The notes below the pieces were generated by a model, which worked only from the letters and a program-made list of their open reading frames with translations, was not told the DNA's origin and ran no database searches. Both the position numbers and the translations under genes were made by a program. This document shows, piece by piece, positions 1,715 to 24,428 of a stretch of 32,000 bases of DNA. Numbering within the stretch: position 1 is the stretch's first letter; each line of letters begins with the position of its first letter. The stretch covers positions 60,001-92,000 of the forward strand of contig NZ_JAGIOS010000001.1 in assembly GCF_017876815.1 (NCBI RefSeq), written 5' to 3'. The DNA is from Sinorhizobium meliloti. GTDB taxonomy: Bacteria; Pseudomonadota; Alphaproteobacteria; Rhizobiales; Rhizobiaceae.

Positions 1715-3598
1715 TCAGAGCGCCGGCATTCCCCGGTCGACGATGCCGAGATCGTCGCTCTCACGCACGCGCTTCAACTGTTCCTCGGCCTGCGTTGCCT
1801 CGCGCTGGCGGCTCCACATGGAAGCATAAAGTCCGCCGCGGTCGATAAGTTCGCCATGGGTGCCGCGTTCGGCGATCACGCCGTCCTTCAGGACGATGAT
1901 CTCGTCGGCGTTGATGACCGTCGACAGGCGATGGGCGATGACGAGGGTGGTGCGATTGCGCGACACGATATCCAGCGCAGCCTGGATTTCCTGTTCCGTC
2001 TTCGTGTCCAGCGCCGAAGTCGCCTCGTCGAGGATCAGGATCGGCGGCGCCTTCAGGATGGTTCGCGCGATCGCGACGCGCTGTTTCTCGCCGCCCGAAA
2101 GCTTCAGCCCGCGCTCGCCCACCATGGCGCGGAAGCCTTCCGGCAGGTCGCGGATGAAATCGGCGATCTGCGCCGCCTCGGCGGCTGCCTCGACCTCCGC
2201 ATCGCTCGCGGTCACCCGGCCGTAGCGGATGTTGTAGGCGATCGTATCGTTGAAGAGCACCGTGTCCTGCGGCACCATGCCGATTACGGAGCGGAGGCTC
2301 TTCTGGGTGACGTCACGCACGTCCTGACCGTCGATGGTGATCGATCCTTCCTGGACATCGTAAAAGCGGTAGAGCAGCCGCGACAATGTCGACTTGCCGG
2401 CTCCTGAGGGGCCGACGACTGCAACCGTCTTTCCGGCGGGCACCTCGAAGCTGATCCCTTTCAGGATCGGCCGTGCCGGATCGTAGGCGAATTGGACGTT
2501 CTTGAAGGCGATTGCGCCTCGCTCGATCTTGAGCTCCTTCGCATTCGGCCGGTCGACGACCTCCGCCCGAACATCGAGCAGATCGAACATATGTTCGATA
2601 TCGGTAAGGCCCTGGCGGATTTCGCGATAGACGAAACCGATGAAGTTCAGCGGGATCGCGAGCTGGATCAGCATCGCGTTGATGAACACGAAATCGCCGA
2701 TCGTCTGCTCGCCGCGCTGCACGGCGAGCGCCGATATCGTCATCATCACCGCCGTGCCGGCACCGAAAATCAGCGCCTGGCCGAAGTTCAGCCAGCCGAG
2801 CGACGTCCAGACCTGCGTCGCGGCCCGCTCGTAGCGCTCCATCGACTTGTCGAAGCGCTTCGCCTCCATCTCCTCGTTGCCGAAATATTTGACGGTCTCG
2901 AAGTTGAGCAGCGAATCGATCGCCTTGGTGTTCGCATCGGTGTCGCTGTCGTTCATCGAGCGCCGAATGGCGATGCGCCAGTCGCTCGCACGTACCGTGA
3001 ACCAGATGTAGAGCCATACCGTGACAGCGGTCACCAGGAGATAGGTGAAGCCGTAGCCCCACCAGAAGATCACCGCCGTCAGCAGGAACTCGATGAGCGT
3101 CGGTACGCTGTTGAGGATCGTGAAGCGGACGATCGTCTCGATGCCCTTGGTGCCGCGCTCGATGATGCGCGAAAGCCCGCCCGTGCGCCGCTCGAGATGG
3201 AAGCGCAGCGAGAGCTGGTGCATGTGAACGAAGGTCTTGTAGGCAAGCTGCCTGACGGCATGCTGGCCAACACTGGCGAAAAGCGCGTCGCGCAACTGGT
3301 TCAGGCCGGCCTGCAGCAAACGGGCGAGGTTATAGGCGAGCACCAGCATCACGGCGCCGGTCAGGAACTGCGGCAGGAAACCGAGCGCGTCGGGCTTGTT
3401 GTTGAGCGCATCCGTCGCCCATTTGAAGAAATAAGGGACGAGAACGAGCACCGCCTTGGCGATTACCAGGATCACCGTCGCCCAGACCACTCTCAGTTTC
3501 AGATCGATCCGATCGGCCGGCCACATGTATGGCCACAGATTCGCTATGGTTTCGATCGGATTGGCACTGTCGGCGGAAACCGTCTTCTTCTGCGCCAC
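1715..3598 (-). CDS. ABC transporter permease/ATPase fusion, Atm1/HMT1-like exporter
   Basis: 627-aa ORF with a GTG start. Six-TM exporter domain followed by an NBD with Walker A (GPSGAGKST), signature (LSGGEKQR) and Walker B (ILILDEATSALD). The N-terminal LWPYMWP... region resembles Atm1-type transporters. Confidence 0.85.
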   Translation of the reverse strand: MAQKKTVSADSANPIETIANLWPYMWPADRIDLKLRVVWATVILVIAKAVLVLVPYFFKWATDALNNKPDALGFLPQFLTGAVMLVLAYNLARLLQAGLNQLRDALFASVGQHAVRQLAYKTFVHMHQLSLRFHLERRTGGLSRIIERGTKGIETIVRFTILNSVPTLIEFLLTAVIFWWGYGFTYLLVTAVTVWLYIWFTVRASDWRIAIRRSMNDSDTDANTKAIDSLLNFETVKYFGNEEMEAKRFDKSMERYERAATQVWTSLGWLNFGQALIFGAGTAVMMTISALAVQRGEQTIGDFVFINAMLIQLAIPLNFIGFVYREIRQGLTDIEHMFDLLDVRAEVVDRPNAKELKIERGAIAFKNVQFAYDPARPILKGISFEVPAGKTVAVVGPSGAGKSTLSRLLYRFYDVQEGSITIDGQDVRDVTQKSLRSVIGMVPQDTVLFNDTIAYNIRYGRVTASDAEVEAAAEAAQIADFIRDLPEGFRAMVGERGLKLSGGEKQRVAIARTILKAPPILILDEATSALDTKTEQEIQAALDIVSRNRTTLVIAHRLSTVINADEIIVLKDGVIAERGTHGELIDRGGLYASMWSRQREATQAEEQLKRVRESDDLGIVDRGMPAL

Positions 3599-19855: not shown

Positions 19856-19955
19856 CGCTGCCGCGTCGCTGGCATACGCGCAAACGGCAGTTGTGACGGG
19901 TCTGCAGCGCGGGCTTACCGTCGACGGCATCAACTGCCGCTATAAGTGGCGTAGC

Positions 19956-20000
19956 CGTAAGCGAGAGCAGCGGCACTTGGTAATGGCTGCTTCTCTTACG
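19956..20000. terminator. Imperfect hairpin at the left islet border between convergent nadQ and the acyltransferase gene
   Basis: Arms cgtaagcgagagcagc / gctgcttctcttacg give about 14 bp with small bulges and a 14-nt loop. No U-run is present, so this may be a structural or terminator element only. Confidence 0.3.
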
Positions 20001-20028
20001 CCGCTATGCTGCTCATTCGCGGATTGGC

Positions 20029-20526
20029 TCAATCATCATGAGTTTCGATATCGGCTCCAATGCGGAAAGAGCGGGTTGGTCGGGTAACCAAAGGGTTTTT
20101 CCAAACCTGCACTCGTCTAATGGCACCGTCAGCTTTTCTCCTGATCGCATAAGCCTTGTTGTGATCGGCGAAATAGTTTTGATGGAGATCCCGCTTGATC
20201 CGCGGAAGTATATTCCCGACGGGAGCGACGATATCGATGAACCAGAGATGGTTCCCCGAAGCCCACTTGCCCGGTGGGGGATTGCATCCTTCGCGGAGCA
20301 GTGCTTCATGGTCGTCGTTGTCAACAAGTGCCCAGGTAACGAATGCGTTCGGTCGCCCTTCTTCGTCGAAGTACACTTTGCACTGACCGGCTTGAAGCGC
20401 AGGTATGATGTTACGACTTATGTCCGCAACGAACCAGTGTTTGTAGTCGCAATCCATCATGAGCGCAGTGACCATTCCGAGCGCTTCAAAAAAATCTAGG
20501 CGAACCTCCTTTGTCTTCTCCGTCAA
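20029..20526 (-). CDS. HlyC/CyaC/RtxC-family toxin-activating acyltransferase (TAAT)
   Basis: 165 aa. It aligns by eye to E. coli HlyC: ...KHWFVADISRNIIPALQAGQ..., ...AFVTWALV..., W.SGNHLWFIDIVAPVG. The proposed catalytic His/Asp equivalents are present (H30, D98). The TTG start overlaps the HlyD-family stop (TTGA). Confidence 0.8.
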   Translation of the reverse strand: MTEKTKEVRLDFFEALGMVTALMMDCDYKHWFVADISRNIIPALQAGQCKVYFDEEGRPNAFVTWALVDNDDHEALLREGCNPPPGKWASGNHLWFIDIVAPVGNILPRIKRDLHQNYFADHNKAYAIRRKADGAIRRVQVWKNPLVTRPTRSFRIGADIETHDD

Positions 20527-21845
20527 CGTTCCCCTAATCCGTCTTGAATTGCCTTGATTATTGGCTCGAAGAAGTAACTAATGAGCCGCCGTTCACCCGT
20601 TATCACATCGATCGTCGCAGTCATGCCGGGCGAGAACCCTATGTCGCGCCCGCCTATCCCAATTGTCTCTTGGTCGAGTACAAGGTGGATTGCGTAGACC
20701 CATTTCCCTGGGACGATGTCGCCGCGCGCATCCGCACCAACTCTAGTCACCCGACCGCGAACAATACCGAAACGTTCGGCCGGAAAGGCGTCAAACTTCA
20801 CAAATGCCTCTTGCCCTTTTTCAAGAAAGCCGATGTCACGGTTGTCGAAGAAAGCTTCAATCTCCATGCCATCGCCGGAAGGTACGATGGACATGAGTGT
20901 TGAACCTGCTTCCACGAAACCGCCGATGGTAAATACCGTGAGGTTCTCGACCTTGCCATCTGCTGGTGCGCGAATCGCGAGCAAGGCCAGTTGGTTCCTA
21001 GCCGCGCTCAGTTCCGCTTCCAGCCCTGCAAGGGACGTGCTCGCCTCGTTCAGTTGTTTCTGATAGTTCTCGACTGCGGTCGAAATGATGCTCTGCCGCT
21101 GTCTAGCCAACGCGTTCGCTTCCGCTGCAAGGATATTCAATTCGCTCTCGGAGATGAGCACCTCCAGTTCGCGTGCTCTTTGCTCACGCAATCGCTCGAA
21201 GTAGTCTACTTCGCTGATGGCTCCCTTGTCCTTCAACTTGCCGGCTGACAAAAATTTCCTGGAGGAAATATCCAGATCAGACCGAGCTTTCTGCAGTCGC
21301 GCCTGCTGGGTTATTCGCGATTGTTCGACACGATCAAGTTGCGCATTGATCCGCGCAACCTGATCTCGAAGAGACGTTAGCACAGCCTCTATAAGTGCCT
21401 CCGCTCCGTCGATAACCTCCAGGTCATGCCGCTCCCTTTCGAAGGCAGCTCTGCCTGCCGCAAGCACATCATCGTTTGCGACTGCAACATTTGTCAGCGC
21501 CGCAATGATTACTCGGGCAACCGTCGCCCCGCGACGTTGGCGACGAACCTCGGTCAGCCTGAGCTTGATCTGGCTCTCAACCGAGACGGTATCCATGCCG
21601 ACTAACAAGTCACCAGCCTTCACCGGCTGCCCCTCTGTGACCAGGATGCGTATGATCCTCCCGTTGGTCTGTGGCTGAACGAGCTGAACCCTGCTGACTG
21701 GAATAACCTTGCCTTGACCTCGGGCCACTATTTCGATCTTGAGCCAATAGCCTCCAACGAAAATCGCGACCAGACCCGAAATCAGAACCCAAGTGGTTAA
21801 GCGCACGGTTGGCGAGACTGGCCTCTCGATGACGGCTTCCTTCAT
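20523..21845 (-). CDS. HlyD-family type I secretion periplasmic adaptor (membrane fusion protein)
   Basis: 440 aa from MKEAVIERP. N-terminal TM, a lipoyl-like GQGKVIP...VQPQTNGRIIRILVTEGQPVKAGDLL segment, a long coiled coil and a C-terminal beta-barrel ending ...ERRLISYFFEPI. The ATG lies 1 nt after the ABC gene stop. Confidence 0.85.
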   Translation of the reverse strand: MKEAVIERPVSPTVRLTTWVLISGLVAIFVGGYWLKIEIVARGQGKVIPVSRVQLVQPQTNGRIIRILVTEGQPVKAGDLLVGMDTVSVESQIKLRLTEVRRQRRGATVARVIIAALTNVAVANDDVLAAGRAAFERERHDLEVIDGAEALIEAVLTSLRDQVARINAQLDRVEQSRITQQARLQKARSDLDISSRKFLSAGKLKDKGAISEVDYFERLREQRARELEVLISESELNILAAEANALARQRQSIISTAVENYQKQLNEASTSLAGLEAELSAARNQLALLAIRAPADGKVENLTVFTIGGFVEAGSTLMSIVPSGDGMEIEAFFDNRDIGFLEKGQEAFVKFDAFPAERFGIVRGRVTRVGADARGDIVPGKWVYAIHLVLDQETIGIGGRDIGFSPGMTATIDVITGERRLISYFFEPIIKAIQDGLGER

Positions 21846-21846
21846 A

Positions 21847-23604
21847 CTAAGTCTGCCTGGAACTATCGCTGGGGCGCTGCAATTGAGCAATGTTGACCAT
21901 GTTCACGTCACTGCCAAACAGCTCGGGATTGTGAGTGACAATAATCACGGTGCTCTTGACGGCGTGCCGCTTAATCGCAGCAATGACGATGTCAGCAGAT
22001 GCGGAATCAAGCGCGCTGGTGGGTTCGTCGAGGATCAGTGCACGGGATGGCGACACAAGGGCCCGTGCAAGTGCAATGCGCTGGCGCTGACCACCAGAAA
22101 GGTAAGCGCCACGTTCGCCAACGTCCGTGAGTATGCCATTTGGCAGCTCCCCAATAAACAAATCGCAACCGCTTTCGACCAAAGCCGAACGGATTTCCTG
22201 ATCCGTTGCGGCGGCGTTGCCCAAGAGAATGTTGTCCTGAACGGAACCCGAAAATAGTTCCGGCTCCTGCGGAAGATACGCAATCGCTTGCCGCACGCTG
22301 CGTTCATCGTAGTCAGTGAGTTTATGTCCGTTCGCCTCAACCACTCCGCAATCCGGCCTGTAAATGCCGCTGATAAGCTTGGCGAGAGTAGACTTGCCAC
22401 AGCCCGATGGGCCGGTAATCACCGTTGGGCGGTCCGGGGATATCTCCAGAGTGAGGTCAAGGATAACAGGTTGCTCGGGTAGATAGCAAAACGATACGGC
22501 CTCCAAGTGGAGACTCAGCCGGCCGGACACGGGGAGCGGCGGCTTGGAAATATCGGTTTCTGCTGCGGCATTCAATAAATCGCCTAACCTCAGCCGAGCG
22601 ATCCGAAGTGCCTGCCATTGTTCCCACACTGCCGACAGGGAGAGGATCGGCCCAGCCACCTTGTCGGCCAGCAGGTGAAATGCAATCAGCTGCCCGAGCG
22701 TGATCTCATTTCGCAAGACGAGATGAGATCCGAAAAAGACGATCGATATAACCGAAACGTTGCCTAAAAGTCCGCCGGTAAAGCCATTGACAATATGGAG
22801 CTTGGTTACTTCAAAACCGGCAAGGAGACTATCTGCCAATGTACGGTTAAGCCGCTCCGATTGTACCGCCTCGCATCCAAGCGCCTTGACGGTGACTACG
22901 TTAGCCAACGTCTCCACGAGACGAGACTGGTGCCTGGAATAGTCCAAAAAAGCCCTCTGCATGCGTCGTCGTGTCAGCGGCCCAATGACACCGAACGCGA
23001 TTACTTGCAGAGGCAGAACGATCAAAACGATAAGCGTCAGCATAGGGCTGATGGTTATCAGAGCAGCGACGTAGATAATCGCGAACAGCAAATCGACCAA
23101 AATGCTGGAAACGGTTCCTGTTAGGAATGCTTTGACCGTGTCGATTTCGGAAATGCGGGTTAGCGTTTCCCCCACCCGCCAACATTGAAGTTGCCTCAAC
23201 GGCAGATGAAGGACATGCCGGAAGATTCGGCCGGCGAGATCCAACGTCAGCCGATTGCCCATGTGGTTTCCGAGATAGGCCGCCAGCGCGTCCAGAATAG
23301 CGGACAAGATCGCGGTAACGCCGAGAACAACTACGATCAGCAGCAGTGTTGCTTCCCGCTGGAACGGCAGGACCCGATCAATGACAGCCTGAAAGACAAA
23401 AGGCTGTACCAAGCCAAGCAACCGCATCACAATCGCTACGATCATGAGTTCGATCATTAATGGTGTGTAGAAAAATGTGGTGCGCGTGAACCACGAAAGA
23501 GGTGCTAATCGGAGATTATCCACCACTTCGTAAGTATCCCCCACCACACTCGAAGATCGTCTCCCGCAATTATCCCTGATACCAGAATCAATTTGACTCC
23601 TCAA
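21847..23604 (-). CDS. Type I secretion ABC exporter (permease/ATPase) without C39 or C39-like N-terminal domain
   Basis: Up to 585 aa. The TMD start LSWFTRTTFFYTPLMIELMIVAIVMRLLGLVQPFVFQAVIDRVL resembles HlyB (…FTWFIP…FFQVVMDKVL). NBD has GPSGCGKST, LSGGQRQR and ILDEPTSALD. There is no in-frame ATG before TM1. The frame opens at TTG 23604; GTG codons 20, 21, 27 and 28 are alternative starts. A stop closes the frame upstream. Confidence 0.8.
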   Translation of the reverse strand: MRSQIDSGIRDNCGRRSSSVVGDTYEVVDNLRLAPLSWFTRTTFFYTPLMIELMIVAIVMRLLGLVQPFVFQAVIDRVLPFQREATLLLIVVVLGVTAILSAILDALAAYLGNHMGNRLTLDLAGRIFRHVLHLPLRQLQCWRVGETLTRISEIDTVKAFLTGTVSSILVDLLFAIIYVAALITISPMLTLIVLIVLPLQVIAFGVIGPLTRRRMQRAFLDYSRHQSRLVETLANVVTVKALGCEAVQSERLNRTLADSLLAGFEVTKLHIVNGFTGGLLGNVSVISIVFFGSHLVLRNEITLGQLIAFHLLADKVAGPILSLSAVWEQWQALRIARLRLGDLLNAAAETDISKPPLPVSGRLSLHLEAVSFCYLPEQPVILDLTLEISPDRPTVITGPSGCGKSTLAKLISGIYRPDCGVVEANGHKLTDYDERSVRQAIAYLPQEPELFSGSVQDNILLGNAAATDQEIRSALVESGCDLFIGELPNGILTDVGERGAYLSGGQRQRIALARALVSPSRALILDEPTSALDSASADIVIAAIKRHAVKSTVIIVTHNPELFGSDVNMVNIAQLQRPSDSSRQT

Positions 23605-23613
23605 CCAAAAAGC

Positions 23614-23625
23614 ACAATATATTGT
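23614..23625. promoter_or_regulatory. Perfect 12-bp palindrome ACAATATATTGT in the divergent control region (candidate operator)
   Basis: Self-complementary 12-mer located 10 nt upstream of the ABC exporter reading frame, inside the AT-rich 23605-23735 spacer. That spacer also contains CTATAAT (23704-23710). Confidence 0.25.
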
Positions 23626-23735
23626 TTAGTGACCATCAGCGTCTTTATGCTGAGATAGGCGACGCTATAGCTCTGCTATCGGGGATCTAGACGAGATTAT
23701 ACCCTATAATTGCCGCCATTATTGTGTTTTTGTCG

Positions 23736-23861
23736 ATGACAATCGTGGATTATATTATAGAAATTGCAGGGTTGTCTCCGCCAAAATGGGTTACCCTTCT
23801 CATCTATGCCATAATCAACTACGTGATTTATTTGGTCGTACTGCATTTTGCTAACGTTTGA
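23736..23861 (+). CDS. 41-aa hydrophobic mini-protein (candidate immunity / membrane peptide)
   Basis: Hand-translated as MTIVDYIIEIAGLSPPKWVTLLIYAIINYVIYLVVLHFANV. One predicted TM helix. It lies immediately upstream of, and co-directional with, the glycine-zipper gene. No obvious SD. Below the ORF-track length cut-off. Confidence 0.35.
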   Translation: MTIVDYIIEIAGLSPPKWVTLLIYAIINYVIYLVVLHFANV

Positions 23862-23912
23862 ATGGATTGCGACCTATCAGAGGTAGAAACGTTACTGGAT
23901 TGGAGAACTGCG

Positions 23913-24191
23913 ATGGGAAGTTCAGGTGGGTCAGGCGGGTCAGGCAACAACAATCCCAGTGCGGGGCGTGTTGGTAGTGCAATAGGGGTAGTTGTTGGAG
24001 GAACGATCGGCTCCGCTTATGGTGGACCGATGGGCAGCCGTGTCGGCGGCGTAATAGGTGGGCTCGCTGGTTACGCCGTAGGGAGCTCCGTTGGCAACGG
24101 AGCGCCAGATTACCGCGGCTATAACCCCATGGGAGACTATGGTGGCGGCGGCTCTCCCGGCCCTGGAGCTGGAGGGTTTGGCGGCCGCTAA
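23913..24191 (+). CDS. Glycine-zipper mini-protein, putative T1SS-exported bacteriocin-like cargo (CdzC/D-like)
   Basis: 92 aa with 35 Gly. Gly occurs at residues 21, 25, 29, 33, 37, 41, 45, 49, 53, 57 and 61, giving ten consecutive GxxxG units. No Sec signal or lipobox. GGAG lies 7 nt upstream of ATG 23913. A terminator follows. The track ORF (from 23862) adds 17 residues without an RBS. Confidence 0.7.
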   Translation: MGSSGGSGGSGNNNPSAGRVGSAIGVVVGGTIGSAYGGPMGSRVGGVIGGLAGYAVGSSVGNGAPDYRGYNPMGDYGGGGSPGPGAGGFGGR

Positions 24192-24212
24192 CCTTCGATA
24201 ATGACAGAACGG

Positions 24213-24245
24213 AAACGCGGCGAGGTTTTTGCTTTGCCGCGTTTT
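24213..24245 (+). terminator. Rho-independent terminator of the glycine-zipper gene
   Basis: 9-bp stem aaacgcggc / gccgcgttt with a 14-nt loop, ending in a tttt run 22 nt after the TAA stop. Confidence 0.6.
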
Positions 24246-24428
24246 AGCGTGTGGTTGGCGGCAATGACTTGGCAGCGACAGTTGGGACGAAATGTTTTGG
24301 GTTCGTTGCGGCTCAACGCCAGCCAAGCCAGCTGGCCTGCTTACCCGAAACAGCCCGCCAATACGTTCCTCGTTCGTGCGGCCCCCAAGGTGGCTCGGAC
24401 GCGCACAGAAACGTACTGGCGACATGCA

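Follow-up and report, generated by a model that had tools for sequence, protein, structure and literature searches.

To our knowledge, every toxin-activating acyltransferase (TAAT) characterised so far forms an amide on an internal Lys of a very large secreted protein, either a repeats-in-toxin (RTX) toxin or CdiA. One of them, CdiC, lipidates the non-RTX antibacterial effector class IV CdiA, and the lipid is proposed to aid engagement of membrane or lipopolysaccharide (PMC8510554). The Cdz system of Caulobacter crescentus comprises the CdzAB type I secretion system (T1SS), the glycine-zipper bacteriocins CdzC and CdzD and the immunity protein CdzI (PMC5380434), and in Aat/Cex systems AatD acylates the N-terminal Gly of dispersin/CexE (PMC7943197, PMC7478709). 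In the literature searched, no TAAT was found to be described as working on small T1SS peptides outside the RTX group, apart from a passing reference to a 'toxin-activating lysine-acyltransferase'-like gene, uncharacterised, among the possible modification genes of Serratia microcin clusters (2026, PMC13101503). The locus described here lies in a 32,000-nt stretch of Sinorhizobium meliloti DNA (the window; positions 60,001 to 92,000 of contig NZ_JAGIOS010000001.1, assembly GCF_017876815.1) and combines a TAAT gene, the genes for a T1SS exporter and a gene for a 92-aa glycine-zipper protein, predicted to be both the T1SS substrate and the acylation target and referred to below as the cargo.

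Here a TAAT is found paired, repeatedly and under selective maintenance, with small Lys-free secreted peptides. Such a pairing would imply an acceptor specificity not seen before in the family, the simplest candidate being the N-terminal amine. Judged from the sequence comparisons set out below, the locus is very probably a T1SS module dedicated to a small toxin and including the TAAT as an integral part, and the enzyme is probably active on the cargo; the more specific reading, that it acylates the N-terminal α-amine of the cargo in a Cdz-like bacteriocin module, is given a probability of about 0.42.

The open reading frame (ORF) at 20029–20526 (minus strand; 165 aa) had been assigned to the family of HlyC-type acyl-acyl carrier protein (ACP) protein acyltransferases from its letters and translation alone (the sequence-only reading), and database comparison bears this out. 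It matches Pfam PF02794 (HlyC) along the entire profile (1–127 of 127; E 9.6e-40, 135.8 bits, cutoff 25) and is related by sequence to ApxC (4WHN; phmmer, E 3.3e-10), and 1192 relatives were found at E ≤ 0.001 in the representative library. The AlphaFold (AF2) model, built from 86 homologues (pLDDT 90.3, pTM 0.80), resembles ApxC: its top Foldseek matches are the three 4WHN chains (E 1.7e-9, TM 0.69), followed by GNAT acetyltransferases. The ORF is a real gene, and a TAAT by both sequence and fold. As first described, the gene is the last in its operon and its TTG start overlaps the TGA of the adaptor gene (TTGA). The NCBI annotation pipeline (PGAP) starts this protein at M18 in CP090106.1, but the TTG start is supported because a start at M18 would cut off a conserved FFEALG helix. 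Other residues conserved across the family are retained (G17, Q48, W65, A66, W88 and G91).

The cargo gene (23913–24191, plus strand; MGSSGGSGGSGNNN...) was identified from its ribosome-binding site (RBS), Pfam glycine-zipper matches and linked homologues. The protein consists of 38% Gly, with four Arg, no Cys and no Lys, and its hydrophilic Gly/Ser N-terminus contains no signal peptide. It matches PF05433 (24.7 bits, cutoff 24.2) and PF13488 (E 1.3e-4), and GGAG (23902–23905) lies 7 nt before the ATG at 23913. The absence of Lys from the cargo and from an in-frame 17-codon upstream extension, pointed out in the sequence-only reading, is confirmed, as is K17 of a 41-aa hydrophobic ORF as the only Lys among the small plus-strand ORFs. 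Four options had been offered: a non-Lys acceptor, acylation of the 41-aa peptide, a substrate encoded elsewhere, and a non-catalytic role. Because the cargo is Lys-free, its N-terminal α-amine is the only primary amine that it contains.

A search of a 5.8-billion-protein set with the cargo gave two matches, both from S. meliloti, so relatives were sought through the TAAT and ABC (ATP-binding cassette) exporter neighbours, by clade-alignment scans of one-genome-per-species and metagenome collections and by exact-protein look-ups (loci are cited below by L numbers and proteins by P numbers). The same operon of ABC exporter, membrane-fusion protein and TAAT was found in ~20 loci, mostly from Rhizobiales (Pararhizobium, Rhizobium, Mesorhizobium and Bosea, with one unclassified alphaproteobacterium and metagenomes), at 43–59% (TAAT) and 50–66% (ABC) identity. 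The operon of the Rhizobiales loci has a small ORF as its neighbour, in most cases divergent from the ABC gene, and homologues of the S. meliloti cargo itself adjoin TAAT/T1SS genes in L010, L011, L013, L014 and L034. In L058 and L060, with TAATs of 39–43% identity, the cargo region is cut off or not recognisable.

The resulting cargo set contains 23 sequences (22 tabulated plus that of L069). Lys is entirely absent from eight of the 22 tabulated sequences (window, L014a, L010, L013, L034/35, L008a, L033 and L059), and the single Lys of the L069 cargo lies in its leader, so that the part after the leader is Lys-free and the mature cargos without Lys number nine; the L011 cargo has one Lys, as its penultimate residue. 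The puzzle of a TAAT beside a Lys-free partner is therefore a stronger one than it had seemed from S. meliloti alone, as the pairing recurs across genera and extends to enzymes with the canonical catalytic His (L010, L013, L034, L008, L033 and L069). In the lineage of L011, L013 and L034 the TAAT has dN/dS of 0.05–0.08 at dS of 0.5–0.9; purifying selection is thus strong in a lineage whose cargo lacks an internal Lys. Moreover, adjacency of TAAT and cargo outlasts adjacency to the T1SS: in L012 the TAAT still adjoins the cargo with the exporter genes displaced to the far side of the latter, and in L014 it lies beside two cargos and a membrane protein, with no exporter within 8 kb. At the level of sequence comparison, the recurrent Lys-free pairing, the purifying selection and this adjacency speak for the cargo as the target of the enzyme and against Lys as an acceptor in every case.

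These observations bear most directly on the option that the true substrate is a Lys-bearing protein encoded elsewhere, or comprises only the Lys-containing sister cargos, the S. meliloti TAAT being a hitch-hiker or in decay. Several cargo families (B–E, below) do carry 1–5 Lys, deletion and truncation variants of the locus exist within S. meliloti, and betaproteobacterial relatives of the TAAT (30–42% identity) adjoin 1200–2600-aa Gly-rich RTX-like ORFs in the classical arrangement. However, at least eight other loci, spread over several genera, also combine a Lys-free cargo with an intact TAAT, the low dN/dS is found exactly in the Lys-poor lineage, and the copies in the window and in L057 are intact. 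The 32-kb window, read in six frames, contains two isolated GG.G.D matches and no RTX nonapeptides in tandem. This explanation, disfavoured by the conserved cargo–TAAT synteny, which persists in L012 and L014, appears unlikely.

The sequence-only reading had also inferred an active enzyme from an apparently intact His/Asp pair, H30 (DYKHWF) and D98 (LWFIDIVAP). The Asp half of this pair stands: D98 aligns with Asp93 of ApxC in the motif WFID(W/I)(I/V)AP and is the counterpart of Asp107 of CdiC, and its column is Asp in 106 of 118 family representatives and invariant in the clade. H30 was rejected as the catalytic His, as all four alignments (phmmer pairwise, a 118-sequence MAFFT alignment and two L-INS-i alignments) place His24 of ApxC opposite Y28, pairing SPLHRKW of ApxC with DCD-YKHW and leaving a one-residue deletion in the S. 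meliloti TAAT. The H30 column is unconserved in the 118-sequence alignment (H 20, R 18, Q 15, N 10, S 10, D 8), and the closest homologues have the motif Y-[RKS]-[HNDK]-W, in which Tyr is invariant and position 30 is N, H, D or K. By alignment the active-site pair is thus Tyr28/Asp98, not His/Asp, and the original argument for activity rested on a misalignment.

Tyr at this position is a common natural variant, being found in 36 of the nearest 118 cluster representatives (His in 68, Arg in 7). Within the Rhizobiales clade the canonical SPLHRxW is kept in L008, L010, L011, L013, L033, L034 and L069, and the Tyr form is found in the window, L001, L004–7, L009, L012, L014 and L032; His-type and Tyr-type enzymes of this one clade both adjoin homologous cargo. 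The better argument for activity, as far as sequence goes, is this interchange of Tyr and His at the catalytic position within a clade serving the same cargo family. Tyr is often the general acid in GNAT enzymes. TAATs share the GNAT fold (PMC8339906), the direct-attack model assigns Asp as general base and His as proton donor to the ACP thiolate, and His-to-Ala mutants of ApxC and CdiC stay active (PMC8510554). From the activity of these mutants and the usual role of Tyr as an acid in this fold, we infer by analogy that a Tyr/Asp TAAT would be active. Neither residue is present in the TAATs from Betaproteobacteria (L016–L029 and L036–L056; Azonexus, Accumulibacter, Caldimonas and others), which adjoin giant RTX-like ORFs in the classical context and have Lys (DPVKKFMF) in the catalytic-His column.

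Replacement of the canonical His in the S. meliloti copy could also be taken to mean that the TAAT is a non-catalytic cytoplasmic chaperone or adaptor, which binds an N-terminal Gly/Ser tag and hands the peptide to the ABC exporter. Such a role would suit an exporter that has neither a C39 peptidase nor a C39-like domain (CLD), the usual substrate-binding part, and the N-terminal tag is the only element common to all cargos. Against it, no enzyme of the clade departs from the catalytic Asp, His or Tyr, both plausible proton donors, always fills the His position in place of an inert residue, and the sister loci keep the full His/Asp dyad, with G17, Q48, W65, A66, W88 and G91 retained as noted above. 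Together with the low dN/dS, this conservation makes a purely non-catalytic function improbable.

The N-terminal tag was recognised by comparison of the cargos. Sixteen of the 23 begin M-G-[S/G]-[S/G/R/K/A]-..., and these 16 belong to five body families without mutual similarity: a glycine zipper ending PDY..MGDYGG (family A), a Gly/Ala zipper ending ISSC[LW] (family B), and the GTDCHY (family C), CGSCH (family D) and NRDGT...GGYAGYY (family E) types. All 16 MG-type cargos have GGAG or AGGAG 6–9 nt upstream of the start, and in L005, L007, L010, L012 and L037 a stop codon rules out an earlier in-frame start. As a control, the same pattern sought in 40-odd other loci gave seven matches in seven loci, none with an RBS. 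L004 and L007 have TAATs that are 85% identical but unrelated cargo bodies, with only the RBS and the first ~10 codons in common; alignment of the two loci at the DNA level revealed no clean recombination breakpoint, similarity being confined to the ABC gene and the RBS/first cargo codons. This pattern points to a conserved secretion/acylation chassis with a short N-terminal tag and swappable toxin bodies. The option of a non-Lys acceptor has thereby gained comparative support, from an N-terminal motif conserved on unrelated bodies. The eukaryote-style consensus for N-myristoyltransferase (NMT), with Ser/Thr at position 6, fits only about half of the cargos and was not used.

Six cargos instead carry leaders of 15–18 aa (two in L008, and one each in L033, L014b, L064 and L069). 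In all but L064 this is a 15-residue sequence, M..[TSF][LF]EE[RK]LGIR[IV]A[HYF], followed by G-[GS]; the L064 leader is a different one, with 16 residues ending A-R before G-G, and the L059 cargo starts MFRPF-GSS. The residue before Gly is Y in L014b, which has a Tyr-type enzyme, and H or F in L008, L033 and L069, which have His-type enzymes. More distant examples are the Gly-rich peptides of Ruegeria atlantica (L067, 2626–2934) and of a Microcystis metagenome-assembled genome (L068, 885–7200), with near-identical 18-residue leaders (MNYDLEKAMTDLHSPVSF and MSQDIVDAMSDLKSNVSF, each followed by GG; M..D[IL]..AM[ST]DL[KH]S.VSF, then GG) and homologous short ABC/HlyD pairs (44–45% identity). In Ruegeria the only TAAT-like ORF is truncated and adjoins an RTX gene. 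A TAAT is absent from the Microcystis locus, which has, in its place, a GNAT gene (Acetyltransf_3, RimJ/RimL-like), as well as two ~450-aa ORFs, one with an M16 peptidase domain match. The general cargo motif is accordingly hydrophobic-G-[S/G], the leaderless forms having the initiator Met at the position of the last leader residue, and one may conjecture that removal of a leader before Gly would give the same N-terminal Gly as the leaderless route.

In S. meliloti, the 17-codon extension (23862–23912, plus strand; MDCDLSEVETLLDWRTA) was compared with these leaders. The Gly-rich ORF is 109 aa long from the ATG at 23862 and 92 aa from that at 23913; the former has no Shine-Dalgarno sequence and directly follows the stop codon of the 41-aa ORF. 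Counting Met18, the extension (MDCDLSEVETLLDWRTAM, ending ...TAM, then GS) places 18 residues before Gly, several positions being common with the distant leaders; most naturally it is a leader, either vestigial or in alternative use.

The identity of the residue after Gly follows that of the enzyme. Among cargos whose TAAT has the relevant column, Tyr-type enzymes are found with hydrophobic-G-S and His-type enzymes with hydrophobic-G-G in 22 of 22 cases, and the same match is seen inside cargo family A and among the LGIR leaders. The covariation was considered, and rejected, as proof of contact between this residue and the active site, there being few switches; it is treated only as a lead.

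In the favoured reading, the cargo would be translated from the ATG at 23913 and methionine aminopeptidase would remove Met1 to expose Gly2, Met excision being established for small second residues. The cytoplasmic TAAT would then move an acyl chain from acyl-ACP to the N-terminal α-amine, with Asp98 as general base and Tyr28 replacing His as proton donor to the ACP thiolate, as the ApxC/CdiC and GNAT analogies suggest. The lipopeptide would be exported by the ABC/HlyD pair through a TolC-like channel encoded elsewhere, and the acyl chain would tether it to membranes; by analogy with CdzC/D, the glycine zipper would damage a competitor's membrane.

The same N-terminal tract offers a second kind of acceptor: the TAAT could acylate a Ser, Thr or Tyr hydroxyl in the Ser/Gly-rich segment, giving an ester-linked lipid. 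The first 10–15 residues of all MG-type cargos are Ser-rich, Tyr-type enzymes always pair with Ser immediately after Gly, and leader-type cargos would need no leader removal. The His-type loci speak against this, having G-G-E or G-G-S here, with no Ser for 12 residues past the junction in the case of L008b (GGEGGGGGGGG), as does the lack of any Ser position conserved across the cargo families. O-acylation would also be a change of chemistry, since the TAATs characterised so far all form amides with primary amines (PMC8510554, PMC8339906), and it is considered a good deal less probable than acylation of the α-amine.

Several points weigh against N-terminal acylation as a general explanation. 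Acylation of all of these cargos is itself deduced from sequence comparison and analogy. Families B–E carry 1–5 Lys, some in G-K or K-G contexts, and may use classical Lys acylation, in which case the conserved N-terminal motif could be a secretion tag rather than an acylation site. The leader-type cargos (six, plus that of L059) need a protease that cuts before Gly, and not after G-G as classical double-glycine leaders are cut; in S. meliloti itself, the leader-like in-frame extension makes a 109-aa precursor possible. The concordance of Tyr with G-S and of His with G-G amounts to few independent events, because the Tyr clade is nearly monophyletic in a neighbour-joining tree. Finally, the locus is decaying in other S. 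meliloti strains (P0001, P0007, P0008 and P0157).

A broader scenario can be drawn, although it seems rather doubtful: that this TAAT clade has switched from internal Lys to the α-amine of an N-terminal Gly, that the lipid has replaced an ancestral 15–18-residue leader, and that Tyr or His is tuned to the residue after Gly. The enzymes would then form an acyl-ACP-dependent bacterial counterpart of N-myristoylation, with the initiator Met standing where the last leader residue was and the catalytic-position Tyr or His matched to Ser or Gly, respectively, after the glycine, and the cargos would be polymorphic, N-lipidated, surface-tethered toxins on a common rhizobial T1SS chassis.

The remaining option concerns the 41-aa hydrophobic ORF (23736–23861, plus strand; MTIVDYIIEIAGLSPPKWV...), taken from the ORF list. 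As the substrate, it would be acylated on its single Lys, K17; it contains the only Lys among the small plus-strand ORFs and lies directly upstream of the cargo gene. However, it has no visible RBS and no family match, its homologues are confined to other S. meliloti copies (L003, 95% identity), and nothing corresponds to it in the ~20 related loci, whose small membrane ORFs are of other families and are found on the downstream side of the cargo. The proposal that this peptide is the acceptor can hardly be sustained. The ORF might possibly encode an immunity peptide, although its status as a gene is uncertain. Related loci have small transmembrane ORFs downstream of the cargo and, in L010–L013, a CPBP/Rce1-like membrane protein, which in L010 (Rhizobium lemnae; E 7e-19) is likewise encoded downstream. 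The CPBP/Rce1-like family is commonly linked to bacteriocin immunity.

The whole module occupies a low-GC island of ~4.3 kb (19950–24250) in the S. meliloti chromosome, recognised from the GC profile of the window (0.49–0.56 in the island versus 0.63–0.68 in the flanks) and its flanking genes. It sits between a gene for an NrtR-type NAD regulator (nrtR-like) and sodC-nadCBA, and is best explained as horizontally acquired. No flanking direct or inverted repeats of note were found at the island ends; no tRNA search was made there. The island contains no TolC-like gene, no ACP gene and no gene for an Lnt-like membrane N-acyltransferase (AatD). The same flanks are found in L066 (CP090106.1, 1265437–1276898); this record is titled 'plasmid pSymB' yet is 3.72 Mb long and carries chromosomal nadABC and sodC, so that the replicon label looks wrong.

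Within the island, the genes for exporter, adaptor and TAAT are co-directional and abutting. The adaptor (20523–21845, minus strand) is a 440-aa HlyD-family type I secretion membrane-fusion protein by NCBIfam TIGR01843 (type_I_hlyD; E 3.6e-135, 451 bits, cutoff 209) and Pfam HlyD_3; the mechanical ORF reaches 21890, but the ATG at 21845 gives the same 440 aa as the PGAP annotation of CP090106.1. The HlyB-like ABC exporter (21847–23547, minus strand) is taken as 566 aa, the length of the 100% identical protein P0159, the mechanical ORF reaching 23604. Pfam gives ABC_membrane and ABC_tran only, with no N-terminal C39 peptidase or C39-like domain, and the protein covers positions 126–651 of the 694-position HlyB model TIGR01846 (427 bits, below the 726-bit cutoff); as alignment begins only at model position 126, the N-terminal domain is missing. 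PGAP labels it 'peptidase domain-containing ABC transporter', though no peptidase domain is detectable. The other ABC-type ORF in the window (1715–3598) is MsbA-like and housekeeping.

The AT-rich region between the divergent exporter gene and the small plus-strand ORFs (23548–23735) has the lowest GC (0.49) and is presumed to hold promoters for both sides. Promoter and terminator scans of the sequence gave no more matches than shuffled sequence, and no promoter was assigned for that reason. Just past the cargo stop codon, a hairpin read from the sequence (24213–24245, plus strand; AAACGCGGC...GCCGCGTTT, 9-bp stem, followed by T residues) resembles an intrinsic terminator; the terminator scan, limited to loops of 3–8 nt, did not call this hairpin, which has a 14-nt loop.

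In part of S. meliloti the island appears to be decaying. P0001, representing a cluster of 35 member sequences, is a 260-aa fusion of an ABC-exporter fragment to an intact TAAT, with the HlyD gene and half of the ABC gene deleted. P0007 and P0008 are truncated TAATs of 90–91 aa. In P0157 (L057, 10001–10339; GCA_004002175.1) the cargo C-terminus is frameshifted (...GGGGSPALELEGLAAANLR versus ...GGGGSPGPGAGGFGGR), and the NCBI annotation begins this protein at the upstream ATG, giving it 112 aa and the name 'glycine zipper 2TM domain-containing protein'. L003 (Logan SRR8453496) is a damaged copy of the S. meliloti island. A degenerate second copy of the module was also seen outside this species: L015, from Pararhizobium sp. 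LjRoot235, which also carries the intact L005, contains an N-terminally truncated TAAT, an adaptor fragment and a family-D cargo gene (MGSGNSGHGGG...).

TAAT homologues were also found in two contexts without a T1SS. In L062 (3816–6447; Pararhizobium sp. LjRoot238) and L063, a Tyr-type homologue (44% identity; KKYHGW) has genes for a YcaO-domain protein and a PCMT-like methyltransferase as neighbours, and none for a T1SS, in what looks like a cluster of the kind that makes ribosomally synthesised and post-translationally modified peptides, using a TAAT. In L064 (3520–7398) and L065, a His-type TAAT (41% identity) follows the gene for a 110-aa, 43% Gly peptide (MRLPNGLFSIDNKMARGGEGGG...) and precedes genes for a PP-loop (SGGLDS) ATPase-like protein, a fatty-acid hydroxylase family protein and a methyltransferase, forming a second non-T1SS context in which a TAAT is paired with a Gly-rich peptide.

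If N-terminal acylation is correct, it would provide Gram-negative bacteria with a cytoplasmic route to N-terminally lipidated secreted peptides, and Cdz-like contact-dependent bacteriocins with a mechanism for surface retention. It would also mean that Tyr can replace the catalytic His of a TAAT, which bears on the long debate over whether these enzymes work by a covalent mechanism or by direct attack. With four genes and a product of 8 kDa, the system is small, and it resides in the genetically tractable S. meliloti, making it directly testable by mass spectrometry; such systems may matter for rhizobial competition in soil and on roots.

Set against the systems introduced at the outset, the S. 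meliloti enzyme resembles the RTX-associated TAATs (HlyC, CyaC, ApxC and RtxC) in its Pfam family, fold and catalytic Asp, and in sharing an operon with an HlyB-type ABC protein and HlyD; use of acyl-ACP is presumed from family membership. The substrate differs, being a 92-aa glycine zipper with neither RTX repeats nor Lys, and the catalytic His (His23 of HlyC, His24 of ApxC, His37 of CdiC) is replaced by Tyr with a one-residue deletion. Unlike in RTX operons, the TAAT gene is last rather than first, and the ABC partner lacks a C39-like domain. CdiC offers a precedent for the recruitment of a TAAT to a non-RTX antibacterial effector, but it retains the His/Asp dyad and its acceptor is a defined Lys (Lys1467) in a very large protein exported by two-partner secretion (PMC8510554), whereas the S. 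meliloti cargo is small, Lys-free and predicted to be exported by a T1SS.

The likeness to Cdz is drawn from published criteria (PMC5380434) and gene layout. Common to both are a small (60–151 aa) glycine-zipper protein beside ABC and HlyD genes and the absence of a TolC gene from the cluster; relatives of the S. meliloti locus add leaders ending G[G/A/S] and candidate membrane immunity proteins. In S. meliloti itself the leader-like extension is present but the RBS-backed start is at the Met before Gly, and for immunity the window offers only the doubtful 41-aa ORF. Most cargos here are leaderless, starting directly Met-Gly, and the TAAT is integral to the operon, in contrast to the Cdz cluster, which according to its authors encodes no modification enzyme (PMC5380434). 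By analogy, contact-dependent, surface-retained action as in Cdz is plausible. Class II microcin clusters, with peptidase-containing exporters, likewise have small Gly-rich antibacterial peptides beside ABC and membrane-fusion protein genes, but their exporters have a C39 peptidase domain that cleaves a double-glycine leader, and neither is found here; the TAAT-like gene of the Serratia clusters is likened to the present one by its published description only.

The GNAT-fold NMT acylates the α-amine of Gly2 after Met removal, and also nearby Lys (PMC8339906), so that a single active site can serve both kinds of amine. NMT and TAATs have no sequence relation beyond the fold, however, and NMT uses acyl-CoA, not acyl-ACP. 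The closest functional analogy is with Aat/Cex, in which a small secreted protein is lipidated on Gly and exported by ABC, membrane-fusion and TolC-like components; there, the acyl chain is added by AatD, an Lnt-like N-acyltransferase of the membrane, once the protein has been exported by Sec and has lost its signal peptide, whereas the S. meliloti enzyme would be a cytoplasmic TAAT of the GNAT fold.

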